A stretch of DNA of 32,000 nucleotides from an uncultured Lentisphaeria bacterium (GTDB taxonomy: Bacteria; Verrucomicrobiota; Lentisphaeria; JABSQK01; JAJFLO01): assembly GCA_951812855.1 (NCBI GenBank), contig OX638337.1:1-32000 (forward strand). The letters run 5' to 3'. How positions within the stretch are numbered: position 1 is the first letter of the stretch; every line of letters begins with the position of its first letter. The notes under the pieces were generated by a model. That model was not told the origin of the DNA. It ran no database searches and saw nothing but the letters and a program-made list of their open reading frames with translations. Below, one piece after another: positions 4,157 through 29,901 of the stretch. The position numbers were made by a program, and so were the translations under genes.

Positions 4157-4430
4157 TTCTTTTCAATTCAATTAAAATATTGATTTTTCAATGCCTGTGA
4201 GTGAATAATATTTCCGTTCAGACCGTGATTAACGAGTCTGAAATATCCACCTGACCAAGTACTATAGAGTATCTTTCAATAAAACTAACTGCGGGTTTTA
4301 ATGGCTTTTTGTGATAAAAAAATCATAGTTGTATTACCGGCTTATAATGCTCATGCAACATTAAAGAATACATTATCAGAAATGCCAAAGGATTTGGTAG
4401 ATCATTTTATTCTGGTAGACGATGCCAGTT

Positions 4431-4504
4431 CGGATGATACGGCCGGCCTTGCAAAAAAAACTTGGATCGGATGATACGGCCGGCCTTGCAAAAAAAACTT
4501 GGAC
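4431..4504. repeat. 37-bp tandem duplication (2 copies, 36/37 identical), each copy containing an A8 tract
   Basis: cggatgatacggccggccttgcaaaaaaaacttgga[t/c] occurs at 4431-4467 and again at 4468-4504. The unit length is not divisible by 3. Confidence 0.95.
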
Positions 4505-10605: not shown

Positions 10606-11366
10606 TTGCTTGTTTCAGGGATAGTTAATTTTCTGCATTTACTTATGACGTCATCAATTTCCGGAATTGGAATGAAAACGCTAACGAGGTAATTGCCCGG
10701 TTTAAGTTTTCCAGGAATATGTCCAGACAATTTCCTGGTGCGACCAGGAAATACAGAAAATAACTTTTTATTTATCGTGAATTTCGCGACCAACCGGTAT
10801 GTGCTTTTTTCAAAAATTACACCTTCTCCAATCAATTTTAGATAAACATTTCCCTGATTTTCAACTGCAATCTCAATAAGTTGCGGATTAGCATTATTTA
10901 ACTGGATTTCTTTGATTTTTGCAGAATAACGTTCCGTCCCTTTGATATCGGCGGCCAGGTAGATAGAAACTCTGGTCTGAATCCTAGTCGTTGAACTTTG
11001 CTTAACATATTTTTCGGCGAAGCTGATTTTTGTCAGAAACTGGCCCGTTCCATTTTTTGGAAGTGTTACGGTATAATTCAAATCTTTGGTACTTAATGCT
11101 TCCAGATACAACTCATTTTTACTAAGTGAAATCCAGCCGGGATATGTATCCTGGTTAAGAGACATATCTGTTAAAAAAACAGTTAGCCATATTGGTTCAT
11201 TATGTTCGTTTCTAACAGAAATTTTCCCGTTAACAATCTCTCCTGCATTTTCCGAAATTTTTATCGCCAGAGGATCAATAACTATCGCTGATGCGTAACT
11301 GATAAGGGTACTTAGAACAGTGAATGAAACTACGGGAAACAGGAGTAAATGCAAAAGTTGATTCAT
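10602..11366 (-). CDS. secreted two-domain beta-sandwich protein, possibly a PapD-like pilus chaperone analogue
   Basis: 254 aa with a signal-like N-terminus. The pattern resembles periplasmic chaperone architecture: AIVIDPLAIKISENAGEIVNGKISVRNEHNEPIWLTVFL, then RVSIYLAADI, then a second domain IEIAVENQGNVYLKLIGEG...FPGRTRKLSG. This is by-eye resemblance only. Confidence 0.45.
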   Translation of the reverse strand: MNQLLHLLLFPVVSFTVLSTLISYASAIVIDPLAIKISENAGEIVNGKISVRNEHNEPIWLTVFLTDMSLNQDTYPGWISLSKNELYLEALSTKDLNYTVTLPKNGTGQFLTKISFAEKYVKQSSTTRIQTRVSIYLAADIKGTERYSAKIKEIQLNNANPQLIEIAVENQGNVYLKLIGEGVIFEKSTYRLVAKFTINKKLFSVFPGRTRKLSGHIPGKLKPGNYLVSVFIPIPEIDDVISKCRKLTIPETSK

Positions 11367-16353: not shown

Positions 16354-16560
16354 GCAGCTGATGATGATCATTGCCTCCGTTAAAATCAATGTTAATATCA
16401 CGATGTTTAACACGTGGAAAATTTGGTAAACAGGGGGGGGGGGGGGGGGGGTAGATTTTGTCACCTGAAGTCTCTTTTTTATTGAATTTATAATTACTTT
16501 GCTGATAATAAGTCAGTTTGACTTCAGGTTTTTAAAAGCTGTATATCGTGAAATTTCCGG
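16354..16560. repeat. copy 1 of a ~200-bp duplicated module (partner at 24147-24346, same orientation)
   Basis: 16354-16433 matches 24147-24226 with 3 mismatches in 80 nt. 16455-16560 matches 24240-24346 at roughly 90%. A short non-homologous segment lies between them (G-run plus TAG here, cgggtacatttac in copy 2). Internal inverted repeat ACCTGAAGTC (16463-16472) / GACTTCAGGT (16520-16529). Promoter-like TTGAAT (16482-16487) - 16 nt - GATAAT (16504-16509) on the + strand. Confidence 0.9.
16433..16451. repeat. homopolymeric G19 tract (C19 on the minus strand)
   Basis: 19 consecutive G counted directly at 16433-16451. The tract lies at the variable joint of repeat copy 1, where copy 2 has only ggg. 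Confidence 0.95.
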
Positions 16561-16681
16561 GTTAGGTATCATCCTTGCGTTCAGTACGACTGATTTCATC
16601 AATGATGGTTTTACATTTATCAGAAAACTGGGTACCATTTTCATTGAAGTATGAGGATGGAAGTATGAATTACAGGAATAT

Positions 16682-16915
16682 TTATAATTTAGGAGGAGGT
16701 AGAGTGGCTGCTTCGCACGAAGATAGAAAATTTGCATCTTTATGTGCTCCATCGCAAAATGGTTTATTACCTGATTTGCCACATCTGCATAAAGAAATAA
16801 TGCTTCGCCCGGAGAGGTTAAATTCGTTTCCCTGTGAATCTTTTATGGTGAATGCTGAACCTTCAATTTTTAAAGATCCGTTATCGCGTACAGTGATTAT
16901 TGTTTGAGTAGACAT
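16682..16915 (-). CDS. CDGSH-type iron-sulfur domain protein
   Basis: 77 aa with CRCGKSGNKPFCDGAHK (CDGSH signature). The ATG at 16915 is 1 nt after the pit stop codon (16917-19), indicating co-transcription. Confidence 0.8.
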   Translation of the reverse strand: MSTQTIITVRDNGSLKIEGSAFTIKDSQGNEFNLSGRSIISLCRCGKSGNKPFCDGAHKDANFLSSCEAATLPPPKL

Positions 16916-23248: not shown

Positions 23249-23321
23249 TTAATGCGAAGTCACATCGTCTCTATGATCCACCATTATTTGTTAAAATTAA
23301 GTGTATTTGACGGCAGTATTA

Positions 23322-23690
23322 ATGAATATGAATTATAAGCAGATAGCAGATTTACTTGTAGAATTACCCGTCTCTCCAGAAGGCCGATGTTCCTATTTCA
23401 CTGAAAAACGAAGTCAAGCAAAGGCATTTAAACTATCTGGTGATATTAGTCCGGAAATATTTGAGAAATTATTAAATTTAGGTTATCGGCGCTGCGGAAA
23501 TCTTTATTATCAACAGAATTGCTCAGGGTGTAATTTGTGTATTTGTTTTCGAATTGAAACGAATACTTTTACCATGACAAAGTTACAAAAACATGTCTTG
23601 AAAAGGAACAAAGATGTGGTTTGTACAACTGGCATGCCGAATCCAACTCCAATAAAGGAAAAAATTTACTTAAAGTATCAATATCATTAA
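23322..23690 (+). pseudogene. bpt: aspartate/glutamate leucyltransferase / arginyl-tRNA-protein transferase family (Bpt), N-terminal half only
   Basis: The ATE_N-type pattern CSYFTEKRSQAKAF...LLNLGYRRCGNLYYQQNCSGCNLCICFRIETNTFTMTKLQKHVLKRNKD is present. The ORF stops about 120 aa in, whereas the family is about 240 aa. I recognise no C-terminal domain in any downstream frame. Confidence 0.65.
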
Positions 23691-24146
23691 CATTATATGA
23701 AGGACTTTTAATCAGGCAGCACGATAAAAAAATTTGATCGTCATGAAAATTAATAAACAATGTTGTGGAATTTCAATTTATCAGATATCGACGCCTATAT
23801 CAGTTGCTAATTTATTGATGTTATTTTTCTTTTCCGGAATCAAATCACGTCTCTTTTTCATTATTTTTACACACTCCGCCTTACCCCAATCGGTATAATT
23901 GATGACCCGTGCAGCCTGTTGATTTACGGTTAACCGGTATTGAAAGCCGGATGCTGTCCAACTGTCCGGAACAATTTCTGATATGGATAATGTGATGATA
24001 AATGAAAGTATAGTCGCCGGATATTCCAGTTAACCACACCTCCAGTTTTTAACAGTCTTAATCAAATTGAACCACAGGCGGCACGTGCCGATTCAGTTCC
24101 AGCCAACGCAACAGCACGCATTTTCCGGAGCAATATGCAGGCACAT

Positions 24147-24346
24147 GCAGCCGATGATGATCATTGCCTCCATTAAAATCAATGTTAATATCACGATGTT
24201 TAACACGTTGAAAATTTGGTAAACAGCGGGTACATTTACATTTTGTCACCTGAAGTCTTCTTTCTTATTGAATTTATAATTATTTTACTGACAATAAGTC
24301 AGTCTAACTTCAGGTTTTAAGAAGCTGTATATCGTGAAATTTCCGG
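24147..24346. repeat. copy 2 of the ~200-bp duplicated module, ending about 50 nt upstream of the NERD gene start
   Basis: See copy 1. Inverted repeat ACCTGAAGTC (24248-24257) / ACTTCAGGT (24307-24315). Promoter-like TTGAAT (24268-24273) - 16 nt - GACAAT (24290-24295). Weaker similarity extends leftwards (caaattgaacca at 24063-24074 versus caaatggaacca at 16306-16317). Confidence 0.9.
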
Positions 24347-24398
24347 CTTGGCAGCGTTTCCGTGCAAGCCGTTATCAAGGAGGTCCTATTGCCGGGCA

Positions 24399-26116: not shown

Positions 26117-26518
26117 ATGTCAAAAAACCGAAAAAAACACTCTAAACAACCCTGTCTTACCGATAAATTTAGTGCTAATCCATTCAGTCAGCTGGATATA
26201 GATTTAACCAATACTACCGGCGATATTGATAATACAGGATCAGAAAAAGGTGTAAACCAGGCATTTGCCCCTGACAGGTCTGCTAAAGAATTGGTGATTC
26301 GTGTAGAGAAAAAAGGAAGACGGGGAAAGACTGTTACGATTCTGGAAGGGTTTGGGGATATGATGACATCCGGTGAAATTCATGAATTAAGCCGGGTATT
26401 GAAACGGGCTCTTGGTATTGGAGGCAGCATTATCAACAACACGATTGAACTTCAAGGGGATAATCGTATAAAATTAGAAGAAGAACTTAGAAAAGCTGAA
26501 GGGAGGAAGAATAAATGA
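26117..26518 (+). CDS. yciH: SUI1/YciH-family translation initiation factor-like protein
   Basis: The C-terminal SUI1 domain reads ELVIRVEKKGRRGKTVTILEGFG...SGEIHELSRVLKRALGIGGSIINNTIELQGDNRIKLEEEL. Confidence 0.8.
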   Translation: MSKNRKKHSKQPCLTDKFSANPFSQLDIDLTNTTGDIDNTGSEKGVNQAFAPDRSAKELVIRVEKKGRRGKTVTILEGFGDMMTSGEIHELSRVLKRALGIGGSIINNTIELQGDNRIKLEEELRKAEGRKNK

Positions 26519-27277
26519 AAAAATTAATCAATAGCGTTCTAAAAAAGATGGATGTTCGGATAGTGCGGAAATCATCCTTTGATAAATTTGTTTCTAATCA
26601 AAATAAATTTAGAGACTACGAGTTTGCTTACTTCATTGATAGGCCATATGTGTCTGAATACTTTGAATATTTGTCTGAATCTAAATCTCAATTAAGGCAA
26701 GATTTATTTGTGCTAAGCGAATTAAGGTTTAAGAGAGATGGATATTTTGTAGAGTTCGGTGCGACCAATGGAATTGATTTAAGTAATAGTCATCTGTTGG
26801 AAACCAGATTTGGTTGGCAGGGAATCTTAGCTGAACCAGCAAGAATTTGGCACAAGGCGTTAAAGAATAATCGAAAAGTTAACAGACTGTGTATGGAAAA
26901 TGTCTGGAGATAAGCTGATATTTAACGAAGTTGGTACCAGCGAGCTGTCGACAATTGATGCTTTTTCCAACGTTGACAGGCACAGTAAGTCTCGTCAGAC
27001 GGGTACAAAATATGAAGTCCAAACTATTTCTCTTGCAGATCTATTGAAAAAATATGATGCACCAAAACAAATTGACTACTTGTCGATAGACACAGAAGGA
27101 AGTGAGTTTGAAATTTTGGAAACATTCGACTTTAACGCATACGATATTAAAGTTATTACATGTGAACATAACTATACGCCGATGAAGCAAAAGCTGTATG
27201 AATTGTTAACTAAGAATGGCTATGAAAGAAAATTTTCCGAATTTTCTTTGTTTGACGATTGGTATGTTAGACGTTGA
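26515..27277 (+). pseudogene. FkbM-family methyltransferase, single frameshift near 26875-26886
   Basis: The first ORF (26515-26913) has QDLFVLSELRFKRDGYFVEFGATNGIDLSNSHLLETRFGWQGILAEPARIWHKALKNNRKV. The family continues in the next frame (open from 26864) as TDCVWKMSGDKLIFNEVGTSELST...IDYLSIDTEGSEFEIL to 27277. The start overlaps the yciH stop in an ATGA overlap. Confidence 0.7.
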
Positions 27278-27410
27278 AGTTGAGCAAACAGTTGTCGCAC
27301 TGATGCACGAGTATAAGCATAAACTCGATACTGAAAAGCCACCACGAATAGCAATCTTGCTGATTTCTTAAATAGACTCTGAATGTATTGTTTATTTTGA
27401 AAGGGGGTGT

Positions 27411-27452
27411 CCGCTATTTATTTTCCGCTATTTATTTTCCGCTATTTATTTA
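27411..27452. repeat. 14-bp tandem repeat x3 (ccgctatttatttt) overlapping the stop codon of the formyltransferase-like gene
   Basis: Copies at 27411-27424, 27425-27438 and 27439-27452. The last copy ends in a instead of t. The third copy contains the TAA (tta on + at 27450-27452). Confidence 0.9.
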
Positions 27453-29184
27453 CGGTACGGTACTTTCGTACTTCTTGAAATCAATTGCCAGCACCCCGTC
27501 CCTAAAAGCCAACGAATGAGTGCCGCATATGTCAGGGAAATATTTCGGCGGGATTTCAATCATCACCTCTTCCTCATAACTGTTCTCATCTAATTTTTTG
27601 ATCTCTGAAACACCCAATGATTCTCCGTAGGAATTAAACCCTTGAACTTGAAAGACTCTAAAAATGCTCTCACCCTCAATTATTAAACCCCCATTTCTTG
27701 CACATTCCGAATTAAAAATAACCGGATTCCCAACATGGGCCACCCAATCATCACTATCTGGCGAATCTGCGTAATAGATATGAAGCTCAGAACCGAAGTC
27801 ATCTGCATCCGATGAGTCAACATTGGTAAGTAACCACCATTTTCCATGAAGTGCGAAAATGACACTGTCTGTGGCTCTAACATTGCTGATCAATGTCTTG
27901 TGGTATGACCACTTTGTTGGAAATTCTTTACATAAATAGAGTCGTATTTCACCAATTTCACCTGTGTCCGGGCACATAAACAACTGGCCATTCCAATTAA
28001 ATAAAAATGGAAAAGACAAATGGAAGGGTTCCTCTAATACAGTCCCAAGCTCGGTGTAGCCGTCACTCGCCAATTCATAACAGGCAATACATCCGCGGTT
28101 CGATTTATAGTCAAAATCTTCTAAAAAACAGAATGACCGATCACCCTCTGTCCATACAAATGGGTCCGCAAGAAATCGATTTGGCGGGTTCCTTATTATC
28201 TTAGAGCGCCACAATACAGAACTTTTCCAATCATCGACAAACTGAAATGCCACTCCCCATCTATCCGCCTTTTTGTGCACGTACCGTTGCAGTATTTTGT
28301 TCGCTACTCCGGGGCCAAGCCGGGCAATCAGATAGTAAATCTGTTGAGACAGGTTTGGCATTCGATAAAGAGGATAAGCATATGGCTTCTTGGCCAGGAT
28401 TTCGGGCAGGTTTCCGCTCTCGCCCAACTTATCAAGAACTCGATGAAGAAATATGTTTGCCTTTTTGTGAAGCTTTGCCTGATTTACTTTAAATAGGTAT
28501 GAAGTAGCAATGCTGCCAGCAAAAAAAACGTCGCCTCCGTCCAATTCTTCTTTAAGTCTTTGAATTACAAAACCTGTACTTCTATTACGATTGAAAACCT
28601 CCCAAAAACCTGAAGGCCCCCCCCTGTTGACATTATTGTTTGCATGGTGAAATGAAAGAATCCCGAATTTGCATAGATCGAGTATTCCGCCACGCAGAAT
28701 TCCACTGCCACATCGTACAAGTACGTCGAAATTCTGTGCTTTAATGGAGTCCAAATCCTTTGGAGTAAATCGGTGGACAAAACCACTTTTCGATACTACC
28801 GGCGTTACTTTGATATGCGGGATATCAATAGACGAAAGAGCGTGTTTTCGATTATGAAACCGCAGGTTATTGTTAGAACGGAGTGCTATCGCTTCGACTT
28901 TACAGATAATTGACCAGGAAATACGGGAGATGAGCATTTTCAACCCATGGTGCCGTAAGCAGTCTAATGCTTTGCCAAATCTACTTTTCCGTTTTGTTTG
29001 GGATGATTGGATGATTGGATGATTGGATGATTGGATGATTGGATGATTGGATGATTGGATGATTGGATGATTGGATGATTAAGGAATGTATGGCATAATT
29101 TGGACTGCCCTTGCTCCTCTCATACAAATTATGGACAATTTCGCTAATCGGACCATCATCAACAATCAGTGCCACTTTGAGCAT
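27450..29184 (-). CDS. formyltransferase-like domain fused to a beta-propeller-like (FxADPF-type) domain; currently split out of frame by the 8-bp repeat
   Basis: An N-terminal 67-aa ORF (29184-28981, MLKVALIVDDGPISEIVHNLYERSKG...) runs into the repeat. The main ORF (28943-27450) carries the formyltransferase core FDVLVRCGSGILRGGILD...GILSFHHANNNVNRGGPSGFWEVFNRNRSTGFVIQRLKEELDGGDV. Its C-terminal part contains NRFLADPFVWTEGDRSFCFLEDFDY, which I recall from the glucosamine inositolphosphorylceramide-transferase-like family. The main ORF frame stays open upstream through the whole repeat. Confidence 0.7.
29001..29080. repeat. perfect octanucleotide tandem repeat, (GGATGATT)x10
   Basis: 80 nt of exact 8-nt periodicity counted directly. 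The flanks break the period on both sides (g at 29000, a at 29081). It lies inside the 5' coding region of the minus-strand gene and translates as cyclic NHPIIQSS in all three frames with no stops. Confidence 0.97.
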
Positions 29185-29901
29185 TTCCCGGTTCCTTTCC
29201 TAAAAAAGTTGTTTGAAGCAAATCTGATGCGTCTTTGGGGGCAAGTTTCGGAAAATCCCAATCGAGCATTTTTCTTTACTTTTGAAAGTTTGAAATAATA
29301 AAACCTACCTTCTGCTTATTTCACTACAATTATTTTAAATTAGTATAAAAAAAGTCAAAATAAATGGACTATGGCTCAGGATTTTATGCTCTGTATATGC
29401 TCTTATCTGTAATTTGTCGGAGAGGACGCTCTTATCTTTAATGGAATGCAAACAGTTGAGTAACTGTGAGACACATATTGTGTAATAATCTAAATCTCTC
29501 TAAAGACTTTAAAACTATGTTTGCAACTTGAAATGCAAGATATGGCGGGACTGCAGTAAAGATCAGGATAGAATATTTAACTGAATTAAACGTGCTGTAA
29601 TAGTAATAAAAAGATTCATTTGAAAATGATGTATGGATTCATGGGGCGGCAAAGGAATTGGGATTTGATTCAGCGAATCAGGGAATTAAACCGGTAGGCA
29701 GCCGGCCGGCTCAATTATTTCGGTTCTTCTTGCTACTATAAAGAATTGCCTGAATCAGTCGGTCTGCCAGCAAGACCGGGTCTACCTCGGGAGCTGCATG
29801 ACTCGTTGGGATTAGGGGAGGGGGAATTAAGCACCGCAAGGCAGCACAGCTGAAGCAGTTAATTTCAACGAACAGGGGCAGTCCTGGAAACCTGTTATCT
29901 G

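Follow-up and report, generated by a model that had tools for sequence, protein, structure and literature searches.

Does a perfect octanucleotide array that interrupts a formyltransferase-like gene act as a slipped-strand switch, or does it mark a gene in decay? The locus lies on the minus strand of a 32,000-nucleotide (nt) stretch of DNA from an uncultured Lentisphaeria bacterium (contig OX638337.1, positions 1 to 32,000; hereafter the window), where Tandem Repeats Finder (TRF) reports (GGATGATT)x10 at 29001-29080, with period 8, 10.0 copies and 100% matches. On the coding strand the unit reads AATCATCC, and the array is offset by 104 nt from an ATG at 29184. A 16-nt pattern consisting of two units produced nine overlapping matches at the array and none in 100 dinucleotide-preserving shuffles of the window. 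The results presented below identify this tract as a hypermutable intragenic microsatellite and, by mechanism, a slipped-strand frame switch. That it is also a functional, reversible switch kept by selection as a contingency locus is a proposition to which we assign an even chance.

With ten copies, the frame opened at 29184 yields a 67-amino-acid (aa) stub (28981-29184, minus strand; MLKVALIVDDGPIS...PNKTEK), and the remainder of the gene forms a separate open reading frame (ORF) of 497 aa (27450-28943, minus strand), which gene callers start at ATG 28937 to give 495 aa. Stub and main ORF are one base out of register (29184-28943 = 241 = 3x80+1), and the main frame is free of stops from a TAA abutting the start of the array across all ten units. 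With 7 to 14 units in place of the array in silico, one continuous ORF resulted at 8 (572 aa), 11 (580 aa) and 14 units (588 aa), and stubs of 59-78 aa at 7, 9, 10, 12 and 13 units. The ORF list and these simulated fusions agree in full with the coordinates and frame arithmetic of the initial annotation, which had designated ten copies as an OFF state and predicted that one more unit (11) or two fewer (8) would fuse the two frames. Its description of the repeat as free of stops in all frames holds for the three sense frames of the octanucleotide and fails on the antisense strand, which contains a TGA. When read in frame, the array is translated as repeats of NHPIIQSS, at eight residues per three units.

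Using the two-unit version of the fused gene as query, we searched 5.8 billion protein clusters and obtained 1900 relatives, the best of which are 556-558 aa long and 46-55% identical to the query, with 99-100% query coverage that includes the first 35 residues. The N-termini of these homologues follow the pattern M-x-K-(L)-R/K-V-G-x-I-V-D-D-G and align from residue 1 of the fused protein, such that the window sequence MLKVALIVDDGPIS... is matched to MIKVGLIVDDG... and M..LRVGYILDDG... in the homologues. Because homologues of about 557 aa align from residue 1, and because the two-unit version (556 aa) has the usual length of the family, the stub is part of the gene and the 67-aa ORF its native N-terminus, as had been proposed. 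Orthologues starting at the internal Met, the scenario named beforehand as refuting that proposal, are excluded by the same alignment. Whether the locus is a switch or in decay, the 67-aa and 495-aa calls should be annotated as one interrupted gene.

The alignment also bears on the origin of the array. Across 16 sequences, the repeat peptide is a lineage-specific insertion located right behind the conserved strand LIVQ, the glutamine of which (Gln38) is invariant. The native codons at this position, TTA ATC ATC CAA TCA TCC (Leu-Ile-Ile-Gln-Ser-Ser), already contain two tandem AATCATCC units, and the array is therefore the product of in-place expansion of a chance two-unit proto-repeat.

The fused protein is predicted to comprise two domains. 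Residues 328-535 of the eight-unit fusion match Pfam GINT1_N (PF24793) with 126.3 bits against a cut-off of 27 (E 1.6e-36), and this match is found in 16 of the 16 aligned family members. For the N-terminal domain, comparison of the family profile with the Protein Data Bank (PDB) returned weak matches to methionyl-tRNA and sugar N-formyltransferases (E 3.4e-4 to 2e-3), headed by the methionyl-tRNA formyltransferase (Fmt) structure 4iqf at E 3.4e-4. The formyltransferase family PF00551 was below detection on the fused window protein, even at E<=1, and was found in nine of 16 family members (best E 2.2e-4). An AlphaFold2 model was obtained for the closest homologue (P0002, 55% identical; pLDDT 91.9), which stands in for the window protein here. 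In Foldseek searches its N-domain matched Fmt and the ArnA transformylase domain at E ~3e-8 to 5e-8, with matches to Fmt, ArnA and the 10-FTHFD hydrolase domain spanning E ~3e-8 to 2e-7, and its C-domain matched the five-bladed propellers of GH117 and GH43 (E 6e-10). Together, profile and model support the N-domain as formyltransferase-like in fold, in line with what had been expected of it.

In the P0002 model, beta1 spans residues 2-9, alpha1 residues 15-26 and beta2 residues 30-38, and the ten residues after beta2 have a pLDDT of 72, the lowest within the first ~160 residues. Mapped onto the model, the repeat insertion falls at the end of beta2 and in this low-pLDDT loop, where additional residues could plausibly be accommodated. 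The Met that opens the 495-aa ORF corresponds approximately to residue 62 of the model, so that a product made from it in the OFF state would lack beta1, alpha1, beta2 and two helices. The motifs SFHHANN..NRG and ELDGGD are invariant across the family and present in the window protein; they resemble, and may be equivalent to, the catalytic His loop and Asp motif of formyltransferases. The designation of the gene as a surface-polysaccharide-type enzyme had been drawn from domain names, and the one homologue locus inspected (P0006) is not a glycan cluster, harboring instead carboxyltransferase, glyoxalase and GidA genes. A literature search found no paper tying GINT1_N to bacterial formyltransferase-like proteins.

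Comparison with closely related strains was afforded by the European Nucleotide Archive (ENA) assembly ERZ18545485, which, together with the window, provided three alleles on four contigs. Its contig names (ptg/atg) are hifiasm-style, from which we infer long accurate HiFi reads. A second member of the protein cluster that contains the 495-aa call comes from this assembly (strain B; ptg000035c, L001), and further alleles were recovered through a 36-aa ORF upstream of the start, using very short flanks so that near-duplicates stayed separate. Strain B is 99.3-99.5% identical to the window around the locus and differs from it by 94 single-nucleotide polymorphisms (SNPs; 0.46%) over 20.5 kb elsewhere. 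Its array (allele B) measures 281 nt, with 34 perfect units, one 9-nt unit (AATCATCCC) and then a final unit. The start codon and the internal ATG are 448 nt apart in allele B and 247 nt apart in the window, and both distances are 1 mod 3, that is, OFF. A further contig (atg001395l, L142) is identical to the window over 541 nt and carries exactly ten units.

The third allele (allele C, atg002333l) has eight units and then AATCAT; the adjoining ~50 nt, with the codons for QTKRKSRFGKALDCLR, are deleted. Its start-to-internal-ATG distance is 191 nt, or 2 mod 3, and allele C is consequently OFF despite its eight units. The flanking DNA of the three alleles is 99.3-100% identical. Alleles B and C have the same flanks and the same 495-aa ORF, yet they are 26 units and a deletion apart, and the tract therefore evolves far faster than point substitution. 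The possibility that related genomes would always show exactly ten copies is thus excluded by copy numbers of 10, 34 plus the 9-nt unit, and 8. The predicted frame-restoring alleles of eight or 11 copies were not found among these contigs, since the sole eight-unit allele is out of frame through its deletion. Every OFF allele is one unit step from ON.

Changes outside the tract are few. Over the main ORF, the window and strain B differ at four nucleotides, two of them synonymous and two non-synonymous, too few to gauge selection. A clustered change (28944-28960 in the window, 2980-2994 in L001) distinguishes the strains in the segment from the array to the internal ATG, with TTACGGCACCATGGG in one and TTACAACGGCATGGG in the other. 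This change (CGGCAC vs CAACGG) consists of a +3 and a -3 indel and keeps the frame, giving LRHHG vs LQRHG. Allele C combines the window-type CACCATGGG with a strain-B-type upstream flank, a mosaic pattern that may reflect recombination inside the locus. Exact look-ups of the window's 495-aa product, its 476-aa YceI product and the 67-aa stub returned no records, a scan of JGI metagenomes with the left flank gave 0 matches, and the stub as protein query matched only repeat peptides of Helicobacter pylori.

On the mechanism that we propose, ancestral codons at the end of beta2 in the formyltransferase-like domain supplied two tandem AATCATCC units, and the array grew from this two-unit proto-repeat as slipped-strand mispairing at replication gained or lost whole 8-nt units. 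Since 8 is not a multiple of 3, each step shifts the register between ATG 29184 and the gene body. Counts equal to 2 mod 3 would specify the full two-domain protein, with eight residues (NHPIIQSS) added after beta2 for every three units, and all other counts would specify a short stub, with no enzyme produced from the native start. The ten-unit allele of the window is OFF, and +1 or -2 units from ON. Beyond this mechanism, switching within a lineage may be frequent and reversible, the in-frame enzyme may be active, and the tract may be under selective maintenance as a contingency locus.

Several features argue for a contingency locus. The repeat is perfect (10 of 10 units) and, at 104 nt from the ATG, sits in the 5' part of the coding region; its copy number sets the frame at all simulated values from 7 to 14; and copy number varies far beyond the flanks among close strains. 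Position, purity and polymorphism of the tract thus favor a switch, as do the intact 1.5-kb body with all its family-invariant residues, the frame-preserving change between the tract and the internal ATG and the single unit step that separates each OFF allele from ON. A number of observations weigh against this reading. None of the three alleles on four contigs is in frame, so that ON and OFF alleles do not occur together in what is a very small sample, and no full-length gene call at high identity exists among the 5.8 billion clusters, which hold only 495-aa calls at 100%. The ~50-nt loss in allele C (QTKRKSRFGKALDCLR, corresponding to helices 41-58 of the P0002 model) is an irreversible lesion, and the adjacent gene, an FkbM-type methyltransferase, is a fixed pseudogene, which argues for decay and against switching. 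Any in-frame allele would have to accommodate 16-88 additional residues within the Rossmann-like domain. The putative glycan role derives from domain names, and neither the window neighbors nor the one homologue locus form a glycan biosynthesis cluster around the gene. Finally, length differences between the window and strain B extend to other repeats (poly-G 19 vs 12, TC by one unit, TACATT x2 vs x1, a 14-mer x3 vs x2), and repeat instability is therefore general and not specific to the octanucleotide locus. The contingency-locus interpretation put forward initially hence stands as regards position, frame logic and polymorphism, and is weakened by the lack of an ON allele among those recovered, the adjacent pseudogene and the deletion in allele C.

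The strongest alternative, which we consider quite possible though somewhat short of an even chance, is that of a decaying gene with a runaway microsatellite, in which the gene, like its FkbM neighbor, had become dispensable, the proto-repeat expanded under relaxed selection, the frameshift is an ordinary inactivating mutation and the tract length now drifts neutrally without phenotype. It would account for three of three alleles being out of frame, for the additional coding deletion beside the tract in allele C and for the FkbM gene next door being frameshifted alike in both strains. It also fits the variability of other repeats, the erosion seen elsewhere in the window (117- and 92-nt indels at 16.2-16.8 kb and an ORF retaining only ATE_N) and the absence of a close orthologue in related genomes, where the next best relative is 55% identical and IlvB has relatives at 94% and 80%. 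Against decay, the 1.5-kb main ORF is intact in all alleles with every family-invariant residue kept, the change between tract and internal ATG preserves the frame, and tracts of such length and purity, with 10 of 10 and 34 of 35 perfect units, are typical of contingency loci. Three OFF alleles are also statistically ordinary: under random phase their probability is ~0.3, which makes them weak evidence against a switch. Strains only 0.3-0.5% apart do not allow a switch to be distinguished from a gene that died recently. It is improbable to a high degree that the OFF register is still expressed as two polypeptides, with the 495-aa body made from the internal ATG or TTG, either through initiation of its own or through re-initiation past the stub, and the repeat tuning expression instead of abolishing it. 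Both ATG 28937 and TTG 28943 open the main ORF, the former is accepted by gene callers, and in allele C the stub's TGA lies 2 nt before the internal ATG (TGAAAATG), an arrangement compatible with termination-re-initiation; the internal-start product, however, would lose three secondary-structure elements and two helices of the Rossmann-like N-domain, and all aligned homologues begin at the upstream Met. Least probable of all, to the point of being nearly negligible, is a mis-assembled or mis-sequenced copy number, and with it an artefactual frameshift. Long perfect repeats are error-prone in assembly, and the extra C of allele B (AATCATCCC) sits in a short C run, but an independent contig (L142) carries the ten-unit allele without a single base difference, reads of the inferred type would span 80-281 nt, and the alleles differ by hundreds of bases rather than by one unit.

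As a slipped-strand switch, the locus resembles several known systems. In Haemophilus influenzae, loci of the lic1A, lic2A and lgtC type carry CAAT or GACA repeats in the 5' coding region of lipopolysaccharide-modifying genes. As at those loci, a perfect repeat with a unit that is not a multiple of 3 lies near the start, slippage shifts the frame, in-frame states add an N-terminal repeat peptide and copy number is strain-variable. The present locus differs in that its unit is 8 nt and not 4, its host is an uncultured bacterium and not a host-restricted pathogen, the insertion falls in a folded domain after beta2 instead of at a free N-terminus, only OFF alleles are at hand and the locus is known from sequence alone. 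The opa genes of Neisseria contain a CTCTT pentamer in the region coding for the signal peptide and, similarly, link translational ON/OFF states to the copy number of a 5' coding repeat with a unit that is not a multiple of 3. The opa genes, however, are a multigene family of surface adhesins with demonstrated switching, whereas we propose switching for a single gene for a cytoplasmic-type enzyme. Octanucleotide simple sequence repeats (SSRs) are also on record in H. influenzae, with ATTATTTG upstream of pdxS and GCATCATC x12-15 upstream of hmw1A/hmw2A, and have already been proposed as mediators of phase variation (PMC2651432). They share the 8-nt unit and a copy number that differs between strains, but are intergenic and would act on transcription, whereas the array described here is intragenic and acts on the reading frame. 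With frameshifted pseudogenes of eroding genomes, in turn, the locus has in common a disrupted ORF, a pseudogene neighbor and further deletions in some strains, and it departs from them in that the lesion is long, pure, length-polymorphic and revertible in principle, with an undamaged 1.5-kb body. The proposed mechanism is classical SSR phase variation; what sets the locus apart is its coding 8-nt unit, with a range of 8 to 35 copies in a single metagenome, its host, which is not a pathogen, and the position of the insertion within a folded domain.

Should the switch be functional, it would carry repeat-driven phase variation over to an uncultured bacterium and to an unusually long coding unit, with a traceable origin of the repeat in two units made of ordinary codons, and strain-resolved long-read metagenomes could reveal contingency loci without cultivation. 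If the gene is decaying, the locus would offer a snapshot of a chance intragenic proto-repeat that reached 35 copies and promoted adjacent deletions. The features of the locus and its surroundings are collected in the following table.

Table. Annotated elements of the interrupted gene and its flanks in the window (strand + or -; a dot denotes no strand).
Feature	Position	Strand	Basis and remarks
Octanucleotide array, (AATCATCC)x10	29001..29080	-	TRF, shuffles and allele comparison; hypermutable element
Start codon and first 104 coding nt (MLKVALIVDDGPISEIVHNLYERSKGSPNYAIHSL), N-domain beta1-alpha1-beta2	29081..29184	-	Aligned with 15 homologue N-termini; identical in 4 of 4 contigs
Out-of-frame tail of the stub, PNKTEK, with TAG stop	28981..29000	-	Applies to the 10-unit allele and to allele B (34 units plus 9 nt)
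Segment between array and internal start, main frame QTKRKSRFGKALDCLRHHG	28944..29000	-	Strain-variable; mostly deleted in allele C
Main ORF, 497 aa (TTG 28943) or 495 aa (ATG 28937)	27450..28943	-	Intact; keeps all columns invariant in the 16-sequence alignment
Whole interrupted gene, formyltransferase-like N-domain and GINT1_N/five-bladed-propeller C-domain	27450..29184	-	Simulated fusions, Pfam, homologue coverage
Best sigma-70-like match upstream of ATG 29184, TTGACT-18-AATAAT, 10/12	29329..29358	-	Candidate promoter; consensus match only
14-nt tandem repeat TCCGCTATTTATTT x3	27410..27451	.	Overlaps the stop codon of the gene and runs on after it; 2 copies in strain B
FkbM-type methyltransferase, frameshift-split near 26880-26900 outside any repeat	26515..27277	+	Same split in strain B

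In promoter and terminator scans, site counts in the region equaled the shuffle expectation. The immediate neighbors of the gene in the window are YceI-like proteins, a SUI1/YciH homologue, a NERD protein, a tRNA-Arg and the one broken FkbM gene. The halves of the latter are ORFs 26515-26913 (132 aa) and 26900-27277 (125 aa), the second of which matches Methyltransf_21 at E 3.4e-16 over profile positions 71-172; the corresponding gene calls in strain B (L001) are 121 and 125 aa long. The FkbM gene is therefore a fixed pseudogene and not a second switch. Of the neighbors initially described as glycan-related and broken, FkbM and GT2, the former is indeed split, by a frameshift outside any repeat, and the window ORFs scanned with Pfam included no GT2 gene. 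The rest of the window is ordinary chromosome, including argB, argD, OTCase, RRF, PHO4, ilvBN, aroK, MreC and a T2SSE ATPase. Its IlvB shares 74-75% identity with proteins from metagenome-assembled genomes of Fibrobacterota, the closest relatives that bear a name.

Other repeats and signs of erosion were observed along the window. The poly-G tract at 16433-16451, with 19 residues in the window and 12 in strain B (L143, ~11180-11195), lies inside one copy of a ~200-nt dispersed repeat (16354-16563 vs 24147-24349, 90-95% identical), the other copy of which has GCGGG at the poly-G position. On the minus strand the tract falls at the 5' end of a frame that has a paralogue in the 63-aa ORF 24058-24249, and it could be a second frame-shifting repeat. 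In strain B, the two copies of the 14-nt repeat TCCGCTATTTATTT at the stop codon lie at 4487-4514 of L001, and the TACATT difference between the strains maps to 24231-24236. In the gap that follows the T2SSE ATPase gene, a 37-nt unit (TCGGATGATACGGCCGGCCTTGCAAAAAAAACTTGGA) is perfectly duplicated in tandem (4430-4503). In the stretch from RRF to PHO4, which is poor in genes and looks like eroding sequence, the window and strain B differ by a 117-nt insertion (16233) and a 92-nt deletion (16709-16800). A 129-aa ORF at 23301-23690 (plus strand) matches only ATE_N, the N-terminal domain of arginyl-tRNA-protein transferase. No long ORF is present in the next ~650 nt, and the 129-aa ORF may represent a further truncated gene.

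Arrays of the same unit type also occur in other genomes. At least 119 stretches, in species-representative genomes of many phyla, contain an exact pattern of three AATCATCC units, often mixed with the sister units AATCATCT, AATCACCC, AATCATTC and AATCAAGC; some metagenome-assembled genomes (MAGs) contain 4 to 11 array loci each, with flanks that are partly shared. For the most part, these arrays lie between genes or adjoin the start codons of housekeeping genes. We rejected a global over-representation of AATCATCC, given 4 occurrences in viral contigs compared with 5 and 2 for composition-matched control octamers. Likewise rejected was the notion that arrays elsewhere mark phase-variable surface genes, as the 28 arrays that precede long ORFs lie mostly before housekeeping genes and look like 5'-leader or intergenic elements. 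No link was found between the arrays elsewhere and the window array, which is of local origin, and no literature on the repeat sequence itself, nor any paper describing the H. pylori array locus, was retrieved. We regard as unlikely a far-reaching reading in which a free-living or non-pathogen Fibrobacterota lineage has a selected intragenic octanucleotide switch that tolerates 16 to ~90 extra Rossmann-domain residues and is perhaps linked to the AATCAyyC arrays of other genomes described below, with one process then underlying the seeding or expansion of the unit type across phyla.

Ignavibacteria MAGs (L016, L020, L037) and a Gemmatimonadales MAG (L025, L073, L118) carry AATCAyyC arrays of 30-200 nt with mixed units at many loci, and such octamer arrays are likewise present at many loci in some Bacteroidales genomes. 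Some arrays have flanks in common with arrays at other loci, and also between two Ignavibacteria MAGs, a pattern that suggests a dispersed element with an internal array. In the Gemmatimonadales MAG, the arrays have a common prefix (CCAATCATCCAATCCCC) and abut start codons (...AATCATCC ATG). In H. pylori contigs (L010, L018, L042, L078, L079), arrays of AATCATCC, AATCATTC and AATCAAGC are located just after an ATG (ggggtagaaATGgcattcattca...), and their products (P0242-P0259) are 'hypothetical proteins' of 65-116 aa with NHPIIQSS-type repeats and strain-variable lengths.

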